64,000 nt of DNA, from the NCBI GenBank assembly GCA_016936155.1, contig JAFGPO010000139.1, forward strand, positions 156-64,155. Reading direction: 5' to 3'. Below are positions 9,304-29,124 of this stretch, piece after piece; the first letter of the stretch is position 1; each line of letters opens with the position of its first letter. Under the pieces are notes generated by a model. It did not search any database, had not been told where the DNA came from, and was given only the letters and a program-made list of their open reading frames with translations. The position numbers and the translations under genes are program-made. The stretch is from a candidate division WOR-3 bacterium (GTDB lineage Bacteria; Hydrothermota; Tepidihabitantia; SM23-42).

Positions 9304-10239
9304 ATGTGTGATCGGAAGACAAAGGGCGGGGAGGTTCCGCGTGCACCCTATACATTCAGTTCAATTGTCGGACTGGATACCTACAAACTGAGGGCCTTGC
9401 ATCTTGCCCAGAAGGAAGTCAATGTATTGATCGTTGGCGAAAGCGGTACCGGCAAAGAATTGTTCGCTTCATCCATACACAATGCCAGTGTTCGCGCCCG
9501 TAAACCATTTGTGATCATGAACTGCGCCGCGATCCCGGAGAGCCTGTTCGAATCAGAGCTGTTCGGTTACCGGAAAGGAGCGTTCACTGATGCCCGGCAG
9601 GATCACACCGGGCGGATTGAATTCGCATCAGGAGGCACGCTGTTCCTCGACGAGATCGGTGATTTGCCGCTTCCTGTGCAATCAAAGCTGTTGCGTGTGA
9701 TCGAAGATAAATCAGTGACCCGCCTTGGCGGTAACGCCCACCAGCATGTCGATGTGCGCTATGTTTTCGCGACGAACCAGGACCTTGGGGCATTGGTGAG
9801 CGCGCGAAAATTCAGAGAGGAACTCTATTATCGCATCAGTGCGCCCTGTTTGAAGATACCGCCCCTGCGCAAGCGGAAAGAAGAGATCCCTGCCCTGGTT
9901 GAGCAATATCTTGAACACTGCCATTATGATCATGGATTGCACATTACGCTCACTAAAGGAGCGCTGTCAAAATTGATGAAGTACCATTTTCCCGGGAACG
10001 TGCGCGAACTCCATGGTATCGTGAAGAACGCGGTGTTCATATGCAATTCGGGCGTGATCAGCGAAGCAGAGGTTGACATACAGCACCATTGTTCTGCCAA
10101 GAATCTAAAGGAACAGCTGGAAGAACATGCGATCCGGATCATCCGCGAGCAACTCACTGTTAACAATCACAATGTAAAAATGACCGCGCAGCAGCTTGAT
10201 ATCAGCCCGCGGACCCTTTACCGGTATTTGAAAAAATAA
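9304..10239 (+). CDS. Sigma-54-dependent transcriptional activator (bEBP) with AAA+ and Fis-type HTH domains only
   Basis: Walker A GESGTGKE. GAFTGA-region variant YRKGAFTDA. Walker B GGTLFLDEIGD. C-terminal HTH reads MTAQQLDISPRTLYRYLKK. No receiver, PAS or GAF domain precedes the AAA+ core. Confidence 0.85.
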   Translation: MCDRKTKGGEVPRAPYTFSSIVGLDTYKLRALHLAQKEVNVLIVGESGTGKELFASSIHNASVRARKPFVIMNCAAIPESLFESELFGYRKGAFTDARQDHTGRIEFASGGTLFLDEIGDLPLPVQSKLLRVIEDKSVTRLGGNAHQHVDVRYVFATNQDLGALVSARKFREELYYRISAPCLKIPPLRKRKEEIPALVEQYLEHCHYDHGLHITLTKGALSKLMKYHFPGNVRELHGIVKNAVFICNSGVISEAEVDIQHHCSAKNLKEQLEEHAIRIIREQLTVNNHNVKMTAQQLDISPRTLYRYLKK

Positions 10240-10317
10240 TCAATTGCAATTCAGTCCTGAAAACACTGTGCTGCCATAAGGTGCTTGAAACCAGTTGAAT
10301 AATCACTACAATGTTCC

Positions 10318-13143
10318 ATGCCGATCTTCCTCCTTACTGATATAGAAAGATCAACCGAAAAATGGGAGAAACACCGCGACAAAATGGGGGAGGTCCTGAT
10401 CCGCCATGATCAGATATTGAAACAGACGATCGAGAAATTCAAAGGGGATATTGTCAAACATACTGGCGATGGGGTATTCGCGGTATTCTGCCAGGGCGCT
10501 CCTCTTCACTGCGCGATTGAACTGCAGAAACGCTTTGAAAATGAAAAATGGAACGAGGTTGGTGAAATCAGAATACGGATCGGCATCCATGCTGGCGATG
10601 CGGAGAAACGGGGGAACGACTATTTTGGCGCGACGGTGAATCGCACTGCCCGCATCATGGAAGCCGCGTGGGGCGGCCAGATCGTCCTGACGCCGGAAGT
10701 CATTACTGCATGCACCACACCCCCGGGCGCCACGCTCCAGGACCTGGGCATTCACATGCTTCCCGATCTTGGAGAACCGCAGCAGATCTACGGACTCGTG
10801 CATCCCGATCTTGCACTCACTGAATTCCCGGCTCTGCGTTCCTTATCCGCACACCCTCATAATTTGCCTGCGCAGCCAACGCCGTTTGTCGGCCGCATCA
10901 GAGAACTGGAAGAACTTGCCAAATTGATCGATAATCCGAAATGCCGGCTGATCAATGTGGTCGGACCAGGAGGTATTGGTAAAACCCGGCTCGCAATCCA
11001 GGCGGCGGCGGACAAGATCAACAAATTCCGCCATGGCGTGTACCTGATTCCACTCGATGCGCTGACCATCGGCTCTATCCAATTTCTCGTATTCACGATC
11101 GCGAATGCGCTAAAGTTCTCGTTTTACAGCCGGGAAGACCCTAAACTTCAGCTTATAAATTACCTGCGCGAAAAGGAGATGCTCATGGTCATGGATAACT
11201 TTGAGCACCTCATAGCTGAAGCCGAGCTCCTGACCGAGATATTCGAGAATTGCCCGCATATAAAATTCCTCGTAACATCGCGTGAACGGTTACGTTTAAG
11301 AGGCGAATGGATTATTGAGATCAAGGGGATGGATTTTCCGGATCGAGCGCATGCTGACAAGTTCGATGAATACAGCGCGATCCAGCTTTTTATGCAGAGC
11401 GCCCAGCGCGTGAAGCCGGATTTCGTTCTTGCCCAAAATGATGAAGCGGCAATTGTGCAGATATGCGATGCTGTATCCGGGATACCGTTGGGCATTGAAC
11501 TCGCCGCATCATGGGTTAGATCCCTGTCATGTTCTGAGATCGCCCAGGAGATCGGCAAGGGACTTGATTTCTTGACCACGACCTTACAGGATGTCCCAAA
11601 ACGGCATCAGAGTCTGCGCGGTGTGTTCGATTATTCATGGAACCTGCTGACCCGGAAAGAAAAAAACACCTTTCGCGGGCTTGCGGTTTTCCCGGATGGA
11701 TTTCAGCGTGACGCCGCGCAGAGTATTCTTGCTGCGTCCCTGTCCGAATTGACCGTACTCGCGGATAAATCACTCATCCGCCGCAAACCCAATGGCCGGT
11801 ACGAATTGCTGCAGATCCTCCGCCAGTTTGCGCAGGAGCAGCTTGAAAAAAATCCAGCAATCAGAGATACAGTCCATGATGCGCACTGCGCATACTATGC
11901 CAATGTGCTTGATCGTTATGAAGAGAAATTCAAAGAAAGTGATCCCCCGGAATTCTACACGATGATGAGCGGGGAGATCGAGAACATTCGGGCGGCATGG
12001 CAGTGGGGAGTTGAGCACTGCCACATTGAGGACCTCGCTGAATTGCTCAAAGGGATGTTCCGGTTCTACGAGCGTAGGGGATGGCTGCATGAGGCAGAGC
12101 AGATCTTCCGGATTACCGCGGAAATGATGCGGATCAAATTCACTGCGCCGTTCGAGCACGATACCCACAAGGCGTTCTACAGCGCGACGATCGCCCGATG
12201 GGGGGGGATATGCAGACGGCTATCCTTGTATGAGCAGGGGCGGGATCTTCTCGAGGAGAGCTTATCCTATGCAAGAGAGCTCAACAACACAAAAGCGATG
12301 GCGTTCGCCTATAATGAACTCGGGGTGATCGCGTATCGTTTTGGCGAATTTATTAATGCTAAACAGCTGCATAAACAGGCATTAAAGATTCGCGAAGAGA
12401 TCGGAAATCAACGGTTGATCACTGCATCGCTCAATAACCTTGCGGTCGTCGTGTATGCCCTTGGTGATTATAACGAAGCAAAACGCCTCCACGAACAGGC
12501 GCTGTCCATACGCCAGAGGATCAATGATACGTATGGCATTGCCACCTCATTGAACAACCTCGGCAATGTCATGCACAGCCTGGGTAACAGCGCAAAGGCG
12601 AGCTCACTTTACGAACAGAGTCTTGTCCTGCGGCGCACGCTCAATGACCGGCTCGGTATCGGATCGTGTCTTAATAATCTAGGGTTATGCGCGGAAAACC
12701 TGGGGGATCTGGAAAGAGCCCGGCAACTGTACGAGGAAAGTGTAGCGCTCAAGATGGAGATCGGCGATACGCGTGCCGCGGCAAACACGCTTGATAATCT
12801 TGGCCGGATAAGCGAGAAATCAGGCGATGATGCGGGCGCCCGCAGGTATTACCGTGAATCCCTTACCATGCTCAGGACGATCAAAGCGATGCCGACCACA
12901 CTTGCGGTTGTCGCGACGATCGGGAAGTTTTTCCTGGGCATCCACAAGTATGACCTTGCGCTCATTTGTGCTGTGCTTGTTCAACACCACCCAGCCGCGA
13001 TCAGTGAGTCCAGGGAAACCGCCTCGGCCATCCTGGCTGAACTGGTGCACAAGTTACCCGCACAAACGATCGACCATGTCCGTAATGAGACTGAAACACA
13101 GCGTGCGGAAAATGTGCTGGAAATGATAATTGCTGCCCTCTAG
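10318..13143 (+). CDS. Class III adenylate/guanylate cyclase - STAND (NB-ARC-like) ATPase - TPR fusion protein
   Basis: Cyclase motifs: IFLLTDIERST, GDGVFAVF, IRIGIHAGDAEKRGNDYFGATVNRTARI. Walker A VVGPGGIGKTRLA. The C-terminal third has repeated TPR units (LNNLA/LNNLG...Y..A...). Confidence 0.8.
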   Translation: MPIFLLTDIERSTEKWEKHRDKMGEVLIRHDQILKQTIEKFKGDIVKHTGDGVFAVFCQGAPLHCAIELQKRFENEKWNEVGEIRIRIGIHAGDAEKRGNDYFGATVNRTARIMEAAWGGQIVLTPEVITACTTPPGATLQDLGIHMLPDLGEPQQIYGLVHPDLALTEFPALRSLSAHPHNLPAQPTPFVGRIRELEELAKLIDNPKCRLINVVGPGGIGKTRLAIQAAADKINKFRHGVYLIPLDALTIGSIQFLVFTIANALKFSFYSREDPKLQLINYLREKEMLMVMDNFEHLIAEAELLTEIFENCPHIKFLVTSRERLRLRGEWIIEIKGMDFPDRAHADKFDEYSAIQLFMQSAQRVKPDFVLAQNDEAAIVQICDAVSGIPLGIELAASWVRSLSCSEIAQEIGKGLDFLTTTLQDVPKRHQSLRGVFDYSWNLLTRKEKNTFRGLAVFPDGFQRDAAQSILAASLSELTVLADKSLIRRKPNGRYELLQILRQFAQEQLEKNPAIRDTVHDAHCAYYANVLDRYEEKFKESDPPEFYTMMSGEIENIRAAWQWGVEHCHIEDLAELLKGMFRFYERRGWLHEAEQIFRITAEMMRIKFTAPFEHDTHKAFYSATIARWGGICRRLSLYEQGRDLLEESLSYARELNNTKAMAFAYNELGVIAYRFGEFINAKQLHKQALKIREEIGNQRLITASLNNLAVVVYALGDYNEAKRLHEQALSIRQRINDTYGIATSLNNLGNVMHSLGNSAKASSLYEQSLVLRRTLNDRLGIGSCLNNLGLCAENLGDLERARQLYEESVALKMEIGDTRAAANTLDNLGRISEKSGDDAGARRYYRESLTMLRTIKAMPTTLAVVATIGKFFLGIHKYDLALICAVLVQHHPAAISESRETASAILAELVHKLPAQTIDHVRNETETQRAENVLEMIIAAL

Positions 13144-20017: not shown

Positions 20018-21814
20018 TTACCGTATCAATAATACTTTGTCTGAGATATGCTGATCCTTGCTCGTGACATGCAGGAAATACACGCCGTTTGCAACCAGCG
20101 CGCCGCTGTGATCCCTGGCATCCCAGGTGATGTGTGGATCCGTGACCCGGGCGTACCTGCGTACAAGACACCCGCTCGCATCGTAGATCATGATGTCCAC
20201 GGGAGAGGAACAGCTCTTGAGGATGATATTCAGCGTATTCGTGAACGGATTCGGCATCGCGTTCATTATTATGACATGCTTTTTATTAATTTCGTTGCTT
20301 CCGAGAATGATCGGGACGGTCACGTCGTCGACGTACCAGCCTTCGTCAATGACGCTCTGGTCGCTCAAGAAACGGAAGCGGAGCCGTACGGTTTGACCGT
20401 GATATGCGGTGAGAGCATGGACCTTTTCGATCCATGATGTCTGCATGCCGTTCAGCTCACCGAGAATCTGCCACCAGCCCTTGTTGTTGTCGATCTCCAC
20501 GTAGCTGTAATCCCAGTCGGTTTCCAGCCGGTACTGGGTCCAGTAGTGGAGCGCGCTGTCCGGGGTTACGACAAAATACGGAGAGATGAGGGATGCGTCA
20601 TTGAGATTAGTGTATTGGTGCGAGGACTCGAGTCCGCTGTACCAGGAGTGACTCGATGAATGGCTCTTATGGGTCGTGAGGTGCCAGTTGTCATTGATGC
20701 CGCCGAATCCCGAATGTGTCCACTGCCCTTCGCCCGATTCCATGTCATCACTGAATCCGGATTGGTCAACGACCAGGAACGAGACATCATCCTGATATCC
20801 GCCGCCGAAAACCACCGCAAACGTCCATGTGTACGGTGTCGGACAACTGCCGGTCACGAATGCATCGACCGTGATCACCACATCAGCATCACCCTGTTCC
20901 AAGGACACTGATTGCGGGCTCGTGGAATTGACTGTCACGTACGGATCGGACGATGATATCGCCGCGGGGCCCGTGTAGGTTCCGCCGCCCTGATTCTTGC
21001 CCGTGATGTACAGGCGCATGGACTCGCCCGGTTCGACAAACCCGTTGCCATTGCCGCTCAGTTCATCAACCGAGTGCCCGTAGTAATCCATGCGCGGCGT
21101 GCTCATGATCTTGATCTCTACCGCCTGGTAGATCTCGCGCGATGATCCCTGGACAAACGATACGATATAGCATTCGTCTTCATCCCAGGTATTGTCAATC
21201 GTGAAGGCTTGAGACCGGATGATTGTGTCGCTTGCCGGGATCGTGACCGCAGTGCCGGTGGCGCTGGGCACCATATCCCTCATTACGTGATCGACATCAG
21301 TCATCCCTCCCCAACTGTAGGGGATATTATTCTCGATGACCACAAAGTGCAGGTTGCCGCTGATCGCGCTGCTCGTGGTATTCTCCACAAGCGCGGTGAT
21401 CGTGCCGGTATTGCTGCCGGAATTGTATGAACAGGTCAGATCGATGATCAGGGGACTGGAAATCCCGGCTCGTGTTGTCAGATGATGACGGTAGATGGGA
21501 AACATGGTTCCGGGAAATGCTACACCACCAGTTTCCTGTATTGATCCGTCGATCCTGACGATCGGCGTGCCGGTGATGCTGTAGTAACTGGCACGCTGTG
21601 ATGCTTCGGCAGTATAGAACGGATAAGATGATGAGATGTGGTAGCCTATGACTACTAATGAATCATAGGAACGATCATGATTTTCAGCAAGACCTCTTGC
21701 TGCTCCAGGGCAGTATGCTCAACCCCCGACCCGGGTAAACTCCTCCATGACCACGACGCGCTGCGCCGCAAACGCGGTGGCGAGAAGAAGAAAAACAAGA
21801 CATATCTTTTTCAT
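20018..21814 (-). CDS. T9SS-sorted secreted protein with N-terminal thioredoxin-like domain, with in-frame TGA (21721-21719) as candidate selenocysteine (UxxC)
   Basis: SD AAGGAG precedes ATG 21814. Signal peptide is MKKICLVFLLLATAFA. Then VVVMEEFTRVGG-TGA-AYCPGAARGL continues in frame into the 495-aa track ORF. The C-terminal CTD reads IMIYDASGCLV...NGVYFLHV...KVLLIR. A pseudogene is the alternative. Confidence 0.6.
21685..21702 (-). other. Candidate bacterial SECIS stem-loop
   Basis: On the mRNA strand: UGA, 16 nt, then CAGCAAG-AGGU-CUUGCUG. The stem is a perfect 7 bp and the loop contains GGU. Confidence 0.45.
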
Positions 21815-21834
21815 ACCCATCTCCTTGTACTGTA

Positions 21835-21863
21835 ATTATATAGGCAAGACATAGTAATGTCAA
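21835..21863 (-). promoter_or_regulatory. Sigma-70 type promoter of the TGA-containing T9SS gene
   Basis: On the minus strand: TTGACA (21863-21858), 17-nt spacer, TATAAT (21840-21835). Confidence 0.55.
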
Positions 21864-22039
21864 GACTTTAGGATAGTAAAGATACCACTCTTCGATTACA
21901 AAGATAAATGAAAAATGACAGGGTAATGGCGTCCATGCAGAATTCCCTTTCCTCCTTGAGAGGAGGGGGCCTGGGTGAGGAGGGAACAGGAATATCTCGG
22001 TAATCTCAAATGTCAAGAAATAGCCATTTTTGCCATTTC

Positions 22040-22066
22040 TGTCAAAATCACTGACATATTTGTCAC
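22040..22066. promoter_or_regulatory. Distal upstream activator-like palindromes (TGTCA-N7-TGACA-N4-TGTCAC)
   Basis: Half-sites at 22040-44, 22052-56 and 22061-66. TGACATATTTGTCAC has the same architecture as the proximal site. Confidence 0.4.
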
Positions 22067-22135
22067 AAGAAATGTTTTCGCAAAGCGTTATTTTTCAATG
22101 CTTCACGCGAAATTGAATAATATGCCGCATAAACC

Positions 22136-22151
22136 GTGACAAATCTGTCAC
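22136..22151. promoter_or_regulatory. Proximal upstream activator-like palindrome GTGACAAATCTGTCAC
   Basis: Perfect 6-bp arms GTGACA / TGTCAC separated by 4 nt. Centre lies about 48 bp upstream of the -24 GG. Confidence 0.45.
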
Positions 22152-22190
22152 AACCGTAAAAATTTAACCCGAAATTTCGAGCCAAATCCC

Positions 22191-22206
22191 TGGCACGAAA
22201 ATTGCT
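22191..22206 (+). promoter_or_regulatory. Sigma-54 (-24/-12) promoter upstream of the RiPP precursor gene
   Basis: cTGGCACGaaaaTTGCTt matches YTGGCACG-N4-TTGCW at every specified position. GG is at 22192-93 and GC at 22204-05. Confidence 0.65.
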
Positions 22207-22327
22207 TATATATACTAAGTACATTTATATAGTGGACAGGCATGAAAAAGTAGAGTTCCACATATTCGTATTGTGCTTTGTTGTTTCCCGGGAATATGAA
22301 GCCATTGTGAAAGGGGGTGAGTTCAGC

Positions 22328-22474
22328 ATGCATGATAAACTACGATCGTCGATTGATCAAGCAGGTCTTAAAGAGGACTTTCTTGCTATGGCCGATCAGG
22401 CTTATGGAACAGTTCCTAAGTGTGGCATAGCATGTGCTCCTGGGTGCATTATCATGAGTCCTGCTATTGAATGA
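22328..22474 (+). CDS. RiPP precursor peptide candidate (48 aa, CX3CX3C core)
   Basis: MHDKLRSSIDQAGLKEDFLAMADQAYGTVPKCGIACAPGCIIMSPAIE. SD AAGGGGGTGA sits 7-8 nt before the ATG. It is the in-frame C-terminal part of track ORF 22202..22474. The radical-SAM gene starts 58 nt downstream. Confidence 0.6.
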   Translation: MHDKLRSSIDQAGLKEDFLAMADQAYGTVPKCGIACAPGCIIMSPAIE

Positions 22475-22485
22475 GAAACACCGGA

Positions 22486-22511
22486 GTGGGGGGTGAATGT
22501 TTGCCCCCCAC
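22486..22511 (+). promoter_or_regulatory. GC-rich stem-loop between the precursor and maturase genes
   Basis: GTGGGGGG-tgaatgtttg-CCCCCCAC. Perfect 8-bp stem with no T-run after it. Confidence 0.5.
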
Positions 22512-22532
22512 CTGTACTGTAAGAGGTATAAC

Positions 22533-23969
22533 ATGATAGAGTGTGATATTAATGATATAATGAAAAATAATTTACGTATTGTGTTGAATCCGAAATTACG
22601 GATGCGTAAGGATATCGATAGAATATATATATTCCCGGTGAATCCCTTTACCTACCAGGAAAAGAACAAACGCATTTACATCAAACCCGCAGAAGCTGTC
22701 ACGCTTGCGCTATTTGATGGTAAGAAGAGGTTAATCGATGTCGTTCATGATATCACAAACATACTACACATTACTGAAGATACCGCGACGCGCATCATTA
22801 GAAATATTATAAAGCGCTACAATGAGTATATGGTCGATGTAGATCGACTAACCGACGAGATTATCACCTATGATCCAGTTGATTTTATTATCCCGAAAGA
22901 AAAGATTGATACCCATACAATTTTCCCCAAAATTCCTGAAATTATCATGTTTATCCCCACTTTTGCCTGTAATTTTGCCTGCAGGTATTGTTATGCGCCA
23001 AAGAGTGCACCCCGTAATGTTCTTCATTTGGATATTATTGATTCATTCCTGAAACAACTTGCAAAATGGAAGCTACCATCCCTTTTCTTCTCGGGCGGAG
23101 ATCCTTTTTGCCATCCACACATCACAGATATCCTGCAATTATGTGTCAATTATAAGATTAAACCTATTATACCGACAAAATCGATACTAACGCGCGATCA
23201 GATAGCATGTTTGCAAAAACTCGGCATAGATGAGATACAAATGAGTATTGACACAATCCAGCCGCAAAAATGCTGTGACCTGCTTGGTGCGAGAGAAAGC
23301 TATATGAATGATATGCTCCAGCAGATTCGATTCTTAACCATGAATGGTATCAAGGTGTATTCGAACAGCGTGCTCACATCCAGTACTATTCATGCCATTC
23401 CCTTGTTGGTGGAACACCTTTACGCACTGGGGGTGCGACGCATGAGTTTCAGTCAGTATTCCCGCTCCTTATTCTGCCATCAGGACGAGTTATTCTGCAA
23501 ATCGGAGAGCTATGAGTGGTTTGATCACGAAATTCAAATGCTGCAACAACGGTTTCCGCAATTGAAAATTTCATATAAAAATATGAAGGATCCGACTTTC
23601 ATGACACAGCAGGAAAAAGAGGCTTTTTTTCAGAACCGCCCAAATTGTACGGCAGGGAAGATGGGCGTGGTTATCTTACCCGATGGAAAAGTTACCGTGT
23701 GTGAAACGCTATATTACAACAGCGATCTAATGCTTGGTGACCTTCAACAGACATCGATAGAGGATATATGGAATTCCGCAGAACGCCATAATATAATAAC
23801 GCGATCACCACAAAGATTGACTTCAGATATCTGTACATCATGCCCGGAAGTCGAATATTGTTATCTTATAAAAGGAAAATGTTATGTTCGTGCGCTCCAG
23901 GCGTATGGCAGCGTTAAGATGCCCGATCCATACTGCCCCAAGAGCCCAGCGGGGAGGAGGATATTGTGA
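22533..23969 (+). CDS. Radical SAM / SPASM-domain peptide maturase with N-terminal RRE (PqqD-like) region
   Basis: CX3CX2C cluster in FIPTFACNFACRYCYAP. C-terminal auxiliary-cluster cysteines occur in CTAGKMGVVILPDGKVTVC and CTSCPEVEYCYLIKGKCY...PYCP. The ~100 aa before the cluster look like an RRE. Start chosen at ATG 22533 (SD AAGAGGT); ATG 22497 is the alternative. Confidence 0.85.
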   Translation: MIECDINDIMKNNLRIVLNPKLRMRKDIDRIYIFPVNPFTYQEKNKRIYIKPAEAVTLALFDGKKRLIDVVHDITNILHITEDTATRIIRNIIKRYNEYMVDVDRLTDEIITYDPVDFIIPKEKIDTHTIFPKIPEIIMFIPTFACNFACRYCYAPKSAPRNVLHLDIIDSFLKQLAKWKLPSLFFSGGDPFCHPHITDILQLCVNYKIKPIIPTKSILTRDQIACLQKLGIDEIQMSIDTIQPQKCCDLLGARESYMNDMLQQIRFLTMNGIKVYSNSVLTSSTIHAIPLLVEHLYALGVRRMSFSQYSRSLFCHQDELFCKSESYEWFDHEIQMLQQRFPQLKISYKNMKDPTFMTQQEKEAFFQNRPNCTAGKMGVVILPDGKVTVCETLYYNSDLMLGDLQQTSIEDIWNSAERHNIITRSPQRLTSDICTSCPEVEYCYLIKGKCYVRALQAYGSVKMPDPYCPKSPAGRRIL

Positions 23970-25186
23970 TGATAAAAGCTGGGGTTCTTGGCAAATGCGA
24001 CTTTGTTTTTCTTGAGAAACCTATTTTCACAAATATATATGGAGTACAAATTAATTGCGGTTCTCAGGATGATCCTGTCGGCACACCAGGCATCGCTCAT
24101 CTTCTTGAACATGTCATTTTTCATTCGAGTCCAGCCCAGGATATTATCCGTGGGGGAGGGTGCGTACAGGCCATGACAGAGCGTGAAAAAACTACGTATA
24201 TCTGCCAGATTCCCACTAACTACAACTGCCTTTTCAATCGATTTCTAGATTCCATTCTCACTCCCGCTTTTAATCAGGAGAGCATTCACAAAGAGAAACA
24301 AAGTGTATTAGATGAATATGCTGCAGTACATAAAGATGGAATCGTTAGAATCATTGATTCATTATACCAACTCATGTTTCCTAAGCAGGGACTGGGCAAG
24401 CCAGTACTCGGCTGCCCAGCAGCTATTCAGCAGATCGAAGTCGAAGACCTTGTTACTTTTCACGCAAAACACTATCAACTATCGAATATTGTTGTCATCC
24501 AGATGGGTTCAGCGATCAATTCCACATATATGCCGAATGGTGGGGTGTTTCGTCATGTGCATAGAACGGATTCATTCAGCACCAAGATCAATACCGGAAT
24601 GCCCAAATTCGGTTGGGAGGTTTCTTCCACAAACAGTAATATATTTCTTCTTGGTTTCCCGGTTTATACAGGAAGTGATAATAAAAAAAGTGCCTTGGTT
24701 CTCCTTGAACGGATGCTCCAACGGTTTGCCGATGAATATGTCATGTCATGCAATGACCTGCATGCTTTAACCTGGCAGTTTTCATTTCAATGCAAGCTCT
24801 ACCGTGATGTCGGAATTCTGTTTTGTCTTATTGCTGGAAAGGGGCAAATCTGTAAACGATTTCTCAGTCAGTTGCGCGAAAAAGTAAAGCAGTTCATCCG
24901 GAATGGATTTACCGATATGCAAATATATGATACTTATAAATTCAGCATAAATTACCACCATACTATGATTGCAGATCCGCTAACGGAAATCAAGACTGCC
25001 TTGCAGGACGTGATTCAGAGTGCAAACATCGGGGAGTATGAAGGGCGAGTTACATCTCCGATTTCAAGGGTAAACAGAAATGTAATGAACACTGTTGCGG
25101 AGTATATTTTTGCGCCTTCTGCTATGCATTATTACGCGAAATGTAGTGCTGATATGTACAGTCTACCGTACATTATACACATATGA
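23969..25186 (+). CDS. M16 (pitrilysin) family zinc peptidase, probable leader peptidase
   Basis: Inverted zincin motif HLLEH (GIAHLLEHVIFH). Downstream motif EKQSVLDEY. The start overlaps the maturase stop (TGATG). Confidence 0.8.
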   Translation: MIKAGVLGKCDFVFLEKPIFTNIYGVQINCGSQDDPVGTPGIAHLLEHVIFHSSPAQDIIRGGGCVQAMTEREKTTYICQIPTNYNCLFNRFLDSILTPAFNQESIHKEKQSVLDEYAAVHKDGIVRIIDSLYQLMFPKQGLGKPVLGCPAAIQQIEVEDLVTFHAKHYQLSNIVVIQMGSAINSTYMPNGGVFRHVHRTDSFSTKINTGMPKFGWEVSSTNSNIFLLGFPVYTGSDNKKSALVLLERMLQRFADEYVMSCNDLHALTWQFSFQCKLYRDVGILFCLIAGKGQICKRFLSQLREKVKQFIRNGFTDMQIYDTYKFSINYHHTMIADPLTEIKTALQDVIQSANIGEYEGRVTSPISRVNRNVMNTVAEYIFAPSAMHYYAKCSADMYSLPYIIHI

Positions 25187-26142
25187 AATTGCATTCTCAA
25201 AGAGATGGTGCTCCGGACGTAGCAATACAAGTCGAGAAACTGAATAAATGCTATGGTTCCAAGCAGGTACTTGATAATGTGAGTTTTTCAGTGAAGAGGA
25301 GTGAGTGTTTTTGCCTTTTAGGTCCCAATGGCGCCGGTAAAACCACGGCCATGAAGATCATCACTGGAATGTTGAGTGGAGACACCGGAATCGTTGAAGT
25401 AAAAGGTATGACCATTACTGAATTACGCAAAAGAGAACGTGGATACATTACGTTAATCCCGCAATATGCTAATCTTGATCCCTTGTTAACAGTTGAAGAA
25501 AACCTGATCTTTTATGGATTGCTTCAGAAGATGAGATACAAGGAAATACACTCCAGAGTCGTCAAATTACTGCGGGTATTTGAGATCGCCCATCTAAAAA
25601 AACAGGTAACCCATCGTTGTTCAGGAGGCGAATACCAGCGCTTGTTGGTTGCCAGAGCGTTCTTGCGACCAGCCGAGATCATTTTTATGGATGAGCCAAC
25701 TGCTGGCATCGATATATTATTTAAAAACATACTTTGGGACTATTTTATTGAGGAAAAAACACGAGGGAGGACGATATATTTGAATACTCACGACCTGAAT
25801 GAAGCAGAAGTCCTGGCTGATCGAATAGGATTTCTATTACATGGAAAGCTCATTGCCATTGATACACCGAGCAGATTAAAATCTCTTGTGCAGGGTGTGC
25901 ATGTATCCGTGAAATGTAGTAATATCATATATCACACAGAGTTGTTCGCAGAGCATAAACACACGCTGATAGATGATAAGACCATTGTGTTACAAGTTGC
26001 TACTGTTGACGCTGCTATTATAAGGTTACTTGAGAGGTTATCCACTATCAACCATATCCTTAATGTTGAGATCACTCAGCCTTCCCTCAATGACGTTTTT
26101 AAGAAACTTGGGGCAGTGAATGCTAGCGATACTGTGGCGTGA
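25183..26142 (+). CDS. ABC transporter ATP-binding protein (ABC-2 type exporter)
   Basis: Walker A GPNGAGKTT. Signature CSGGEYQRL. Walker B IIFMDEPTAGID. ATGA overlap with the M16 gene. Confidence 0.9.
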   Translation: MKLHSQRDGAPDVAIQVEKLNKCYGSKQVLDNVSFSVKRSECFCLLGPNGAGKTTAMKIITGMLSGDTGIVEVKGMTITELRKRERGYITLIPQYANLDPLLTVEENLIFYGLLQKMRYKEIHSRVVKLLRVFEIAHLKKQVTHRCSGGEYQRLLVARAFLRPAEIIFMDEPTAGIDILFKNILWDYFIEEKTRGRTIYLNTHDLNEAEVLADRIGFLLHGKLIAIDTPSRLKSLVQGVHVSVKCSNIIYHTELFAEHKHTLIDDKTIVLQVATVDAAIIRLLERLSTINHILNVEITQPSLNDVFKKLGAVNASDTVA

Positions 26143-26878
26143 AATCCGGCTCCATTATACAAAGCCATACTGGCTGATAGCCAATTTTGTTACACCGCTA
26201 TTCTATTTAGCGTTCTTTGGAGTTTTATTTTCCAACGCGATCAATACTGTAACTTTTCATGGCTCTGAATTCAGTTATCTTCATTTTTTTATTCCCGGGC
26301 TTATCGCTATGCAATCCTTTTTATCATGGTCCCACACACTTGCGCTCGTGAACCTTGATCGACGAGCCCGCGTTCTTGAAGTGATTTCCATGTCCTCGAC
26401 ACATCTTGATGAATATTTTTATGGACGTCTCATTGGCACACAAATTCTGGTCATTATCAAGACCTCGGTATTGCTGGGTATTGCAGTAATATTCTTTAAT
26501 TTTCCCGTAAGGTGCGTATACAGCATAGTAATCTTCGTTCTATTATTGATCATAAGTAATTGCATATGGTTCAATATTGGATTCATATTGGGATTCCTGA
26601 TTCGAACAGAGGACATACGTGACATAGTAATGCAGTTGATTACTCTACCTCTTACCTTTTTGTCCAATATCTATTATCCCGTTGAGAGCCTTACTGGCAT
26701 TTTACGCGCAATTGTATACGCAAATCCATTGACTCACGCCACAACTGTCATTCGTATAGTTCTCCTCATAAATGGAAGCATCCAGATTTCCTCCATCGTC
26801 ATATTGAGCATATACTTCACTATTACTATTATACTGGTTTATATAGGTCTACATAAATTCTGCGCTCGTCTGGAGTAG
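26120..26878 (+). CDS. ABC-2 family transporter permease
   Basis: 252 aa with about 6 hydrophobic segments. Overlaps the ATPase gene by 23 nt. Confidence 0.75.
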   Translation: MLAILWREIRLHYTKPYWLIANFVTPLFYLAFFGVLFSNAINTVTFHGSEFSYLHFFIPGLIAMQSFLSWSHTLALVNLDRRARVLEVISMSSTHLDEYFYGRLIGTQILVIIKTSVLLGIAVIFFNFPVRCVYSIVIFVLLLIISNCIWFNIGFILGFLIRTEDIRDIVMQLITLPLTFLSNIYYPVESLTGILRAIVYANPLTHATTVIRIVLLINGSIQISSIVILSIYFTITIILVYIGLHKFCARLE

Positions 26879-26933
26879 TAGATATTCCAAATGGTTCTAT
26901 CGATATAGCTAAACGACATAAAAATCTGTCACA

Positions 26934-28084
26934 ATGGCAATGATTGAATCATCGCCATTATGGAAGAACCGATCGTTTATACTCTACCTGGTTGGTCAGT
27001 CGATCTCTGCGCTCGGCGATGACTTCTATCTCATCGCATTCATGTGGCTTGCAATGGAGATCTCCGGTGGCAGGGGAATTGCGGTTGGTGGTATTTTCAG
27101 CATTTATATGCTCAACGAAGTTGTATTTGGGTTTATTGCTGGACCGATCGCCGATAGAATAAACAAAAAGAGACTATTGATTTTTGTCGATGTCATACGC
27201 GGCTTGTTTGTCGTAATCCTGTTCATGCTCGTAAGGCGTGGAATGGCAACCATTACGCAGCTCTATGTTATCACGTTTTGCTTTTCGTTGGTCTCGCCAT
27301 TCTTTCATCGGACCGAATTCACCATAATCCCCTTTATTCTGGACGCAAAAGTGCTGCTGCGTGGCAATGGAACACTGGCTGGGTTCCGGCGCCTTATGCA
27401 GGTGATCGCTCCGGCAATAGGTGGTGTGGTCATTGCCCTGATTGGCATTGAGAGTTGTTTCCTCATCGATAGTATAACCTTCTTCATTTCATCGGTATGC
27501 ATCGCAGGTGTGGCTGTAAAGCAAGTCCAGCAGAAAAAGGAAGTTCTTACCTTGGAGGCCCGATACTGCCATTGTTGCCTCTGCTCGCTCAGAAGAGAGA
27601 TGTCGGGGCTTCCGGGTATGGTATCATGATGAGCGCTCTTTCCGTGGGTCTCATTGTTTCTGGATTCATTATTGGATTTTTTGAAAAGTGTTTCAGCAAG
27701 ATACGGTTGATTTTGGTTGGTTTGTTATTATCATCAATATCCATTCTCTTGATTGGCGTATATCCCCGCGCTTTTGTAATCGTCGGATCGATGTTCCTGC
27801 TTGGTCTAGGTTTGAATATTTCCAATTTACCTATCATTACTCTTTTTCAAACCAAAGTTAATCCGGCAAAAATTGGTGTTGTCTCGAGTTTTGTATTTAC
27901 AATTGCCCAGGCCGCACAGCCGATTTCCATTGCTTTAAGCGGTATTCTCGCGGATTTCATCATCTTGAATACCTTATTTATTATAATTGGAACTCTGTTA
28001 CTCCTTGGAACCATAATCGGCTTTCTCCTCGCGCAATTTAGAGAAAACAAGACCATCTTCATTAATATCAAAGAATCGCATTAA
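26934..28084 (+). pseudogene. MFS transporter (MFS_3 / EntS-like), disrupted
   Basis: Two overlapping ORFs in different frames (26934..27629 and 27497..28084). The N-terminal half has about 6 TMs and the C-terminal half only about 5. The frame change lies near the A5 run at 27533-27538. Confidence 0.6.
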
Positions 28085-28120
28085 TAAATGAATAATATCT
28101 CAAAACAATCATATTCAAAA

Positions 28121-28155
28121 TTGAACAAATTGGGGCCTGTCCCCATTTTGTTCAA
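28121..28155. repeat. REP-like palindromic hairpin (left)
   Basis: TTGAACAAATTGGGG-CCTGT-CCCCATTTTGTTCAA. 15-bp arms with a single mismatch. Confidence 0.7.
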
Positions 28156-28185
28156 TTTCAACTAAGAGAAAAGATAAGAGAATAG

Positions 28186-29055
28186 ATGGCGCGAGGATCT
28201 CGTTTGGTCGCTGCTGGTCTGTACCACCACGTATTTAATCGGGGCAATGATCGCCACCCGATATTTAAGCGGGAGGAGGATTACCACAGGTACTTGCGAT
28301 ATTTAGAGATTTTTAGTCCCACATTCAATATCAACATTGTCGCATTCACGTTGATGGAATGGCACATTCACTTGTTTCTATATGATAGAAAAGGGGAAAT
28401 GTCGTCTTTTATGCATTTGTTGCACGGTAAATACGCACGTTTGTATAATATATGTCACGAAAGGACAGGCCATGTGTTTACCGATCGATTCAAGAACAAA
28501 ATAGTGGATACAAATACATATGGTAAATGGCTATCTCGATATATTCACCGTCAGGCGGTGGATGCTGGCCTTGTAGAAAAGGCAGAGGATTATCCCTGGA
28601 CCAGCTATCATCACTACATCGGTCGAACGGAAATGCGTTTTGTATCTTCTGATACGATACTGGAGCAATTCAGTGAAAATAAGCAAGAACAAGTTTCATT
28701 ATACAGAAAATTCATTGAAGATGAGGAAGCAGGCCCAATAGACTGGAGACAAACGGAAATAAATGTCAATCCTATTATTGGAAATAGAGAATTTATTGAG
28801 AAAATGACTCGAAAATTAGGATTATATGATAAAAAATCATGTGAAATGCAGGATGTAATAGAGAAAATCTGTGTTGATTACGGCGTTAATCTTGACGCTA
28901 TGAAATATCCATCCGGAAATAAAGAACGAGCTACACGTCGGTATTTAATAAAAATGCTAAATCACAACCGCGGGATGAGTGTATCAGCGATTGCAAAAGG
29001 TTTGAATATCTCAAAAGGTCTTGTTTCAATGACATTGAATAATGAGGAATATTAA
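28186..29055 (+). CDS. REP-associated tyrosine transposase (Y1_Tnp / IS200-like) fused to a C-terminal DnaA-domain-IV-like HTH
   Basis: HUH motif WHIHLFL. Catalytic-Tyr context LSRYIHRQAV. The N-terminus YHHVFNRGNDRHPIF is typical of COG1943. The C-terminus RRYLIKMLNHNRGMSVSAIAKGLNISKGLVS resembles Bac_DnaA_C. Confidence 0.8.
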   Translation: MARGSRLVAAGLYHHVFNRGNDRHPIFKREEDYHRYLRYLEIFSPTFNINIVAFTLMEWHIHLFLYDRKGEMSSFMHLLHGKYARLYNICHERTGHVFTDRFKNKIVDTNTYGKWLSRYIHRQAVDAGLVEKAEDYPWTSYHHYIGRTEMRFVSSDTILEQFSENKQEQVSLYRKFIEDEEAGPIDWRQTEINVNPIIGNREFIEKMTRKLGLYDKKSCEMQDVIEKICVDYGVNLDAMKYPSGNKERATRRYLIKMLNHNRGMSVSAIAKGLNISKGLVSMTLNNEEY

Positions 29056-29065
29056 GTAATAATAA

Positions 29066-29100
29066 TTGAACAAAATGGGGACAGGCCCCAATTTGTTCAA
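29066..29100. repeat. REP-like palindromic hairpin (right, inverted copy)
   Basis: TTGAACAAAATGGGG-ACAGG-CCCCAATTTGTTCAA. Exact reverse complement of the left copy. Confidence 0.7.
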
Positions 29101-29124
29101 TTTTGAAGCGAAAAAATAGTTATT

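Follow-up and report, generated by a model that had tools for sequence, protein, structure and literature searches.

What does a bacterium of candidate division WOR-3 make from a 48-codon open reading frame (ORF) placed just ahead of a radical S-adenosylmethionine (radical-SAM) enzyme, and which chemistry would that enzyme perform on the product? The ORF lies at positions 22328–22474 on the forward strand of a 64,000-nucleotide stretch of contig JAFGPO010000139.1 (the window, by which we mean this whole stretch of DNA), where an earlier reading of the letters, hereafter the original prediction, had proposed a precursor peptide hidden inside a longer, 90-residue ORF. Judged by comparison with related loci (designated by L numbers), the 48-codon ORF is a genuine and strongly conserved precursor gene, an identification that we regard as firm, and the 48-residue peptide is almost certainly modified by the neighboring radical-SAM enzyme. 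We consider it likely that the peptide represents a new family of Cys-crosslinked, sactipeptide- or ranthipeptide-like members of the peptides that are made by the ribosome and modified after translation (RiPPs), with thioethers installed by the maturase and expression controlled by sigma-54. What is new is the precursor family, its core motif, its geometry, and its regulation; a RiPP operon that couples a RiPP recognition element (RRE), a radical-SAM and SPASM enzyme, and an exporter is known.

A 48-codon gene within a 90-codon frame

Translation of 22328–22474 (+) gives MHDKLRSSIDQAGLKEDFLAMADQAYGTVPKCGIACAPGCIIMSPAIE, 48 residues with Cys at positions 32, 36, and 40, in exact agreement with the sequence and the Cys positions quoted in the original prediction. 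The leader comprises approximately residues 1–29/31 and the core residues 30/32–48, the latter with invariant C32, C36, P38, G39, and C40 and a tail of 8 residues. Could this small ORF be a chance frame, or could the true protein be the 90-residue ORF at 22202–22474, which starts at TTG in a mechanical ORF list? That list does report the longer ORF, and one gene caller stretched the homologues to 55–58 residues; we nonetheless find either alternative scarcely credible. The TTG at 22202 is the TTG of the −12 TTGC in a sigma-54-type site at 22191–22205, so that the start of the 90-residue ORF overlies a promoter, and a conserved one, within its upstream part. In the 10 related loci, window included, whose DNA was compared for regulation and precursor, the stretch of 42 codons ahead of the ATG is conserved in neither length nor sequence, and the distance from promoter to start codon varies from 71 to 178 nt. 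A strong Shine–Dalgarno ribosome-binding site, AGGGGGTG (22312–22319, +), stands 8 nt before the ATG at 22328, and such a site precedes the ATG in all loci: most have GAAAGG(G/A)GGTGA, and the L083/L165 and L166 branches have other purine-rich, Shine–Dalgarno-like sequences. The balance of synonymous and nonsynonymous change is moreover that of a coding region.

Because the region between promoter and ATG is variable and the homologues are 48–49 residues long, the real gene is the 48-codon ORF and not the 90-residue one, which bears out the earlier proposal of a short precursor starting at the ATG, with 42 noncoding codons ahead of it. Both the TTG-initiated protein and the chance frame are refuted by these comparative data. 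For annotation, the lesson is that the 90-residue ORF is called in error and that gene callers either overlook the 48-codon gene or place its start wrongly. A second copy of the precursor was also considered and rejected, none being found in the 64-kb window.

Distribution of the family

How widely is such a peptide distributed? A word-indexed search of 5.8 billion proteins returned 1 relative of the peptide, 90% identical, and the 478-residue maturase has 39 relatives at E ≤ 1e-10. The roughly 700 nt upstream of the maturase relatives were scanned by script for the first 160 loci, and the upstream regions of the closest relatives were read individually; a 48–49-codon ORF of the same family precedes every close maturase relative (39–95% identical) for which upstream sequence exists. 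A profile built from eleven such peptides recovered 13 database proteins, and HMMER, run exhaustively against 1.84 billion cluster representatives, yielded four clusters only (at 50% identity). The distinct homologues number about 20, all of them metagenomic. The short ORF adjoins the maturase on the same strand in all 10 loci with DNA, to which the 13 database proteins are to be added; the small ORF that the original prediction expected beside orthologous SPASM genes in metagenomes is thus found in every locus with upstream sequence. Neither Pfam nor NCBIfam has a match for the precursor, and no curated family model and no paper in the searchable literature fits the precursor family, the motif or geometry of its core, or its regulation. 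On these searches, the precursor family is real but rare and so far metagenomic only: a small, undescribed family from uncultured sediment bacteria.

The source sample, a sediment metagenome, itself holds a second allele of 22134–22384. Its peptide differs by S8L, a residue found in homologues, and there is one synonymous change; the 5′ untranslated stretch 22211–22299 is swapped for unrelated sequence of similar length, 1 base is missing at 22324, and the promoter and coding frame are retained. Three metatranscriptomes of the same study have zero coverage over 21900–25300, which is uninformative at this abundance.

Selection on the peptide

Substitutions in the peptide are overwhelmingly synonymous, which indicates strong purifying selection. 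Between the window and L161, the Nei–Gojobori proportion of synonymous differences (pS) is 0.51–0.54 and that of nonsynonymous differences (pN) 0.02; between the window and L081, the synonymous sites of the core are saturated, with a pN of 0.16. Invariant positions are L5, I9, A12, L14, and D17, with F18 near-invariant, and then C32, C36, P38, G39, and C40. C-x3-C-x-P-G-C is found in all members, each time with a tail of exactly 8 residues behind the last Cys, and wherever the identity of the enzyme is 45% or more, the peptide has CG[IV]ACAPGC without exception. Mean pairwise identity is 67% in the core, 44% in the leader, and 48% in the enzyme.

A core more conserved than both its leader and its enzyme leads one to ask what the peptide is for. 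One answer is that the product is not antimicrobial and instead is a conserved signal or a cofactor-like molecule, comparable to the SCIFF ranthipeptides, pyrroloquinoline quinone (PQQ), or mycofactocin, its sequence being fixed by a conserved partner; a partner-constrained or signaling role has been discussed for the SCIFF peptides. Besides the ranking of identities and the invariant CG[IV]ACAPGC, this answer can draw on sigma-54 control, which implies signal-dependent expression, and on the observation that, the ABC-2 transporter pair apart, there is no evident gene dedicated to immunity. An exporter is, however, always present, which argues against an intracellular cofactor and fits a secreted signal or a bacteriocin alike; the neighborhood contains no conserved gene for a receptor or partner; and four clusters among 1.84 billion representatives is a rarity unlike that of housekeeping cofactors. 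We therefore regard a non-antimicrobial product as doubtful, while core conservation and sigma-54 control together leave room for a signaling or otherwise partner-constrained role.

The maturase and the chemistry of the core

The gene that follows the precursor (22533–23969, +) encodes a 478-residue peptide maturase with an RRE, a radical-SAM domain, and a SPASM domain, as assigned from Pfam (PF04055, PF13186), its cysteines, an AlphaFold2 model, and Foldseek. It has the invariant CX3CX2C (C146/150/153) and 7 invariant SPASM Cys. The model, built from 23 homologues, has a predicted local distance difference test score (pLDDT) of 91.3 and contains an N-terminal beta3–alpha3 domain at residues 16–95 that is predicted to have the RRE fold; the maturase has no Pfam PqqD match at E ≤ 0.01, the RRE being recognized by fold only. 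The top Foldseek matches in the PDB are SuiB (471–484 columns, RRE included), PqqE, SkfB, CteB, and anSME, at 14–18% identity. Those to SuiB, SkfB, and CteB are nearly full-length, and that to PqqE spans about 350 columns, its RRE-type partner PqqD being a separate protein. The best NCBIfam scores are 86 bits for PqqE against a cut-off of 381 and 82 bits for GeoRSP against 400; on the AlbA model the enzyme reaches 43.5 bits, where 850 are required, and by sequence SkfB comes up at E = 3e-4. With no curated cut-off reached, the enzyme fits none of the known sactisynthase families (AlbA, ThnB, TrnC/D, SkfB, KgrC, and others). The enzyme has the architecture of a RiPP maturase and belongs to no named family.

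What would such an enzyme do to this core? The only invariant side chains are the three Cys, next to the Pro-Gly pair, and aromatic, acidic, or basic partner residues are not conserved in the core; Cys-based thioether crosslinking would therefore be the most economical chemistry. Alternatively, the peptide may be a genuine RiPP precursor on which the enzyme makes no thioethers at all, catalyzing an epimerization, a Cys oxidation within the C-A-P-G-C stretch, or a C–C or C–O link, and the mature product would then keep its three Cys as thiols for metal binding or for disulfides. The C-A-P-G-C stretch indeed resembles the CxPxR motif targeted by anSME-type enzymes, and anSME is itself among the structural matches. 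The closest solved relatives, SuiB (a Lys–Trp C–C bond) and PqqE (also C–C), would likewise suit this alternative, as would the enzyme's place outside every curated thioether-synthase family, and the very high conservation of the core would befit a metal- or cofactor-binding peptide. The core nevertheless lacks any conserved residue that typically serves as partner in a known C–C or C–O crosslink, such as an aromatic, Lys, or Glu, with only Cys, Pro, and Gly invariant; multi-Cys CxxxC cores accompany every one of the enzyme's distant relatives; the thioether formers SkfB and CteB are strong structural matches too; and, to our knowledge, anSME-type enzymes have no RRE. Considering both sides, we find a precursor without thioethers quite unlikely, and thioether crosslinking is the chemistry assumed in what follows.

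Geometry of the core and comparison with known peptides

If the three Cys sulfurs are donors, where can their acceptors lie? Subtilosin A of B. subtilis (sboA-albABCDEFG) offers a similar operon layout: a small precursor directly before a maturase with RRE, radical-SAM, and SPASM domains (AlbA), a stem-loop after the precursor, an ABC ATPase with a permease (AlbC/D), M16 zinc peptidases (AlbE/F), and three Cys donors. Its core, however, has 35 residues with acceptors 9–27 residues downstream and is cyclized head to tail, whereas here 8 residues follow the last Cys; it has an M16 pair rather than a single, often absent gene; it is controlled by sigma-A, Rok, and ResD rather than from a sigma-54 promoter; and the window maturase makes a poor AlbA, as its score on that model indicates. 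In thuricin CD (TrnA/TrnB), the donor spacing C-x3-C-x3-C is identical and the cores are likewise hydrophobic and rich in Gly and Ala, but the acceptors lie 8–23 residues past the last Cys of a 30-residue core, a nested pattern that cannot fit an 8-residue tail. With only 8 residues after Cys40, nesting of either the thuricin or the subtilosin type is impossible, and the enzymes of thuricin CD and the other hairpin sactipeptides are not close in sequence.

In contrast, the geometry would allow a compact hairpin that turns at the invariant P38-G39. Neither this pair nor the length of the tail varies, and residues 30–37 and 41–48 form segments of equal length, which suggests a small hairpin centered on P38-G39; the original prediction had set the geometry apart from that of the hairpin sactipeptides, and the invariant Pro-Gly and 8-residue tail appear to suit a compact hairpin no less well than a non-hairpin arrangement. 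A precedent exists in StsA, matured by StsB, a compact hairpin sactipeptide whose short core has three Cys in small, nested sactionines, with three rings within about 15 residues (PMC10288494). Its motif, CxCxCx4GxGxG with Gly acceptors (PMC10288494), differs from the Cx3CxPGC of the window family, which is followed by a tail that has no conserved Gly.

The ranthipeptides, including SCIFF (CteA–CteB, PapA–PapB), are alike in being Cys-rich, modified by enzymes with RRE, radical-SAM, and SPASM domains, extremely conserved in the core, and often encoded in a minimal cluster. CteB is a significant structural match to the window maturase by fold only, not being among the PDB sequence matches. The C-x3-D units modified by PapB share the i/i+4 period of the window core; the latter, however, has no conserved Asp, Asn, Glu, or Thr acceptor at i+4, and no SCIFF-maturase or ranthisynthase model is among the best 25 NCBIfam matches of the enzyme, all below cut-off. 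SuiB, the streptide maturase and best overall structural match, also works on a substrate with a helical leader, but it is 16–17% identical and joins Lys to Trp, neither of which is conserved in the window core. Finally, the NCBIfam families TIGR04117 and TIGR04118 (Cys-Xaa-Xaa-Xaa repeat radical-SAM targets) have Cys at every fourth residue and stand beside a radical-SAM/SPASM maturase; they are themselves uncharacterized, do not match the window peptide or its close relatives, and score 13–18 bits (cut-offs 35–50) against the peptides of distant relatives.

These distant relatives put the family into a wider frame. Maturases about 30% identical occur in Paenibacillus, Methanothrix, Geothrix, Breoghania, and Afifella, preceded by CxxxC-repeat peptides that end in xGC, with the same leader style, for example L(K/R)xLLxxxGLSxxELL, and cores longer than the window's. 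The window family looks like a minimal three-Cys branch of a wider, uncharacterized CxxxC-repeat superfamily, on the evidence of these sequences. The maturases of Paenibacillus and relatives (L006, L007, L008, L013, L085, L093) and of Methanothrix metagenome-assembled genomes (L002, L004) are about 31–33% identical and follow two or three tandem precursor genes with this leader style and longer CxxxC-repeat cores, for instance RCTIGCSMRCTSCSPGCSNGG; cultured Paenibacillus members could serve as experimental models for the superfamily.

Leader removal and export

The N-terminal part of the peptide behaves as a leader in the way originally proposed: it holds the invariant L5, I9, A12, L14, and D17 and the near-invariant F18, and the LKEDFL patch put forward as a plausible RRE-binding site covers three conserved positions. 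In an AlphaFold2 model of the free precursor, two leader helices span residues 2–11 and 15–25 at modest confidence (pLDDT 73–78), and the core has no confident structure (pLDDT about 50). Where would the leader be cut? A basic residue (K31 in the window) precedes Cys32 in every branch except L166/P0048, which has Ser, and this near-constancy suggests a cleavage close to that residue. A double-glycine motif is missing from the precursor, as the original prediction had noted, and the transporter is of the ABC-2 type with no C39 domain; a C39/double-glycine export route was accordingly rejected.

The cluster is constant across the family in four genes: precursor, radical-SAM enzyme, ABC ATPase, and ABC-2 permease. 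In the window, the same-strand order downstream of the precursor is radical-SAM, M16 peptidase, ABC ATPase, ABC-2 permease, a frameshifted gene of the major facilitator superfamily (MFS), and a RAYT-like Y1 transposase. The M16B zinc peptidase (406 residues; 23966–25186, +; PF00675, 62 bits) carries HLLEH (H45, E48, H49) as its HxxEH zinc motif, and among solved structures MPP-beta and PqqF come closest to it. In other RiPP systems, leader removal by M16 enzymes has been documented (PttP1/P2; PMC10885120, which cites the AlbEF complex of subtilosin among its references). The M16 gene occurs in the window, L161, L164, and L166/L167 and is lacking in L081, L082, L083, L165, L168, L250, and L252. 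Given this frequent absence, it is not essential to the family, and the M16-type leader processing that had been favored cannot be upheld as a general rule; the enzyme is a candidate leader peptidase, probably accessory rather than universal.

The DrrA-like ABC transporter ATPase (25183–26142, +; PF00005; TIGR01188 at 213 bits, below cut-off) and the DrrB-like ABC-2 type permease (26120–26878, +; PF01061), which may serve export, self-protection, or both, are kept in every orthologous cluster with enough sequence. The MFS efflux gene (EntS/Mef-like; 26934–28084) is split into overlapping frames at 26934–27629 and 27497–28084, as a frameshift pseudogene or through an assembly error, and has no counterpart in homologous clusters.

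Control of expression

How is the operon switched on? A sigma-54-type −24/−12 promoter, TGGCACgaaaaTTGC, occupies 22191–22205 (+), and this stretch, TGGCACGAAAATTGC, is the sole exact TGGCAC-N5-TTGC in the 64 kb. With one mismatch allowed, there are 4 matches against 4.9 expected; the pattern being no commoner than chance, a single site proves nothing, and it is conservation that supports the promoter. GGCA[CT]-N5-TTGC occurs in all 10 related loci, 71–178 nt upstream of the start codon and between flanks that have otherwise diverged, and it keeps the −24 GG and −12 GC at canonical (10-bp) spacing. The promoter that had been seen to overlap the annotated TTG is, then, a feature of every related locus. 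No strong sigma-70-type site was found upstream of the precursor on the same strand.

A palindrome, GTGACAaatcTGTCAC (22136–22151, +), precedes the −24 element by about 40 nt; it is unique in the window and a candidate enhancer or upstream activating sequence. It recurs at the same distance from the promoter in six of the 10 loci, as GTGACA-N4-TGTCAC in the window and L161 and as GTGCCA-N4-TGGCAC in L164, L081, and L168 (TGGCAT in L082). L169 has a degenerate copy, CTGCCA..TGTCAT, and L083, L165, and L166 have different TGACA..TGTCA palindromes elsewhere. Both half-sites change symmetrically between lineages, which is the behavior expected of a site for a dimeric activator. A distal element at 22040–22067 (+), about 130 nt upstream, combines the inverted repeat TGTCAaaatcacTGACA with a TGTCAC half-site behind it and may likewise bind an enhancer-binding protein; L161, L164, L081, L082, and L168 have an equivalent TGTCA..TGACA. 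Between the proximal palindrome and the promoter, a small palindrome, CGAAATTTCG (22170–22179), might serve a second regulator or DNA bending, and TTGAAAT(T/A)TCG-like motifs occupy the equivalent place in L161, L164, L081, L083, and L165. Sigma-54 control of the operon is the best reading of these sites. A sensor-less sigma-54 activator (AAA+ plus HTH_8, 311 residues) is encoded at 9304–10239, 12 kb from the cluster. Next after it, within the region 9304–13143, comes a gene for a 941-residue guanylate-cyclase/AAA/TPR (STAND-like) protein, and giant proteins of the cyclase- or GGDEF-AAA-TPR type are found near the cluster in L161, L164, and L250.

A second level of control may act on the transcript. 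A G+C-rich stem-loop with no U tract (22482–22514, +) lies between the precursor and radical-SAM genes, which are presumably co-transcribed; the folded 64-nt stretch at this hairpin has a minimum free energy of −24.4 kcal/mol (z of −3.1). A stable hairpin after the stop codon, in sequences unrelated to one another, is present in all 7 loci folded (−20.6 to −37.1 kcal/mol). A scan for canonical intrinsic terminators found none, which rules out a classical terminator. By analogy with the post-precursor hairpins of other bacteriocin and RiPP operons, which have such a role, it probably stabilizes or partly terminates the precursor transcript and so sets the ratio of precursor to enzyme. Rfam has no family over 21500–22700 (promoter, 5′ untranslated region, precursor, and start of the radical-SAM gene), and hence no known riboswitch or leader RNA there.

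Surroundings of the locus

In the Y1 (IS200/RAYT-like) transposase at 28186–29055, the HUH motif (WHIHLF) and the Tyr motif (RYIHRQ) are both intact, and the C terminus is extended by a part resembling a helix-turn-helix. A perfect 44-nt inverted repeat flanks the transposase gene (28114–28157 and 29064–29107), each arm forming a hairpin in the classical REP/RAYT arrangement. Orthologues (39–50% identical) with different flanking hairpins lie directly downstream of the cluster in L164, L252/L083, and L165, so the RAYT unit travels with the cluster. Cluster and RAYT unit together (21700–29100) form a low-GC island of 38–44% between flanks of 50–55%, and in most other loci the homologous cluster has a GC content about 5–9 points below at least one flank; lateral spread may explain this, or else an intrinsic bias in composition.

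On the minus strand, a perfect sigma-70 consensus (TTGACA, 17 nt, TATAAT; 12/12) at 21835–21863 faces the divergent gene 20018–21505, which encodes a protein with Omp28, MAM, and type IX secretion system (T9SS) sorting domains; L161 and L164 show the same synteny of this gene with the cluster. For argininosuccinate synthase, the best match, in a metagenome-assembled genome, is 61% identical.

A proposed pathway and its weight

Taken together, these elements would form the following pathway. An enhancer-binding protein on the palindromes would switch on the sigma-54 RNA polymerase, and the hairpin after the stop codon would hold the precursor transcript in excess over those of the enzymes. The amphipathic leader (L5, I9, A12, L14, D17, F18) would then dock the peptide on the maturase, which, via 5′-deoxyadenosyl radicals, would join the three Cys sulfurs to carbon atoms of the core; the product would be a compact thioether-bridged peptide, probably folded at Pro38-Gly39 with the 8-residue tail as the opposite strand. 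The leader would be cut near the basic residue before Cys32, by the M16 peptidase where present and by a host protease elsewhere, and the ABC-2 pump would export the product, protect the producer, or do both.

Several observations weigh against a sigma-54-controlled, thioether-bridged RiPP. The core evolves more slowly than leader and enzyme, which is atypical for antimicrobial RiPPs, where the opposite pattern is usual. No NCBIfam maturase model reaches its cut-off, and the best structural and sequence matches, SuiB and PqqE, form C–C rather than C–S bonds. The M16 gene is missing in about half of the orthologous clusters, and an activator gene is adjacent to the cluster in none of the related loci. 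No product, transcript, or crosslink has been observed. We still judge the thioether-bridged family likely, on the strength of the conserved precursor, the maturase, and the promoter.

A bolder outcome, which we consider unlikely, is that the core leads to an undescribed crosslink topology or Cys modification, possibly a minimal Pro-Gly-centered hairpin stapled by three very short thioethers, and that the product is a secreted signal or metal binder of constrained sequence deployed through sigma-54, and not a bacteriocin, in an uncultured, T9SS-bearing sediment lineage.

What, then, does the locus offer? Its conserved sigma-54 promoter and symmetric upstream sites make it an unusually clear case of enhancer-dependent control of a RiPP operon. 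The family is compact, with a minimal cluster of four genes and a core of 17–19 residues, and it is amenable to co-expression of precursor and maturase. Since it combines the donor spacing of thuricin CD, with no room for the thuricin acceptors, with an invariant Pro-Gly and a slow-evolving core, it is a good case for learning how radical-SAM/SPASM enzymes set several thioethers in a very short peptide.

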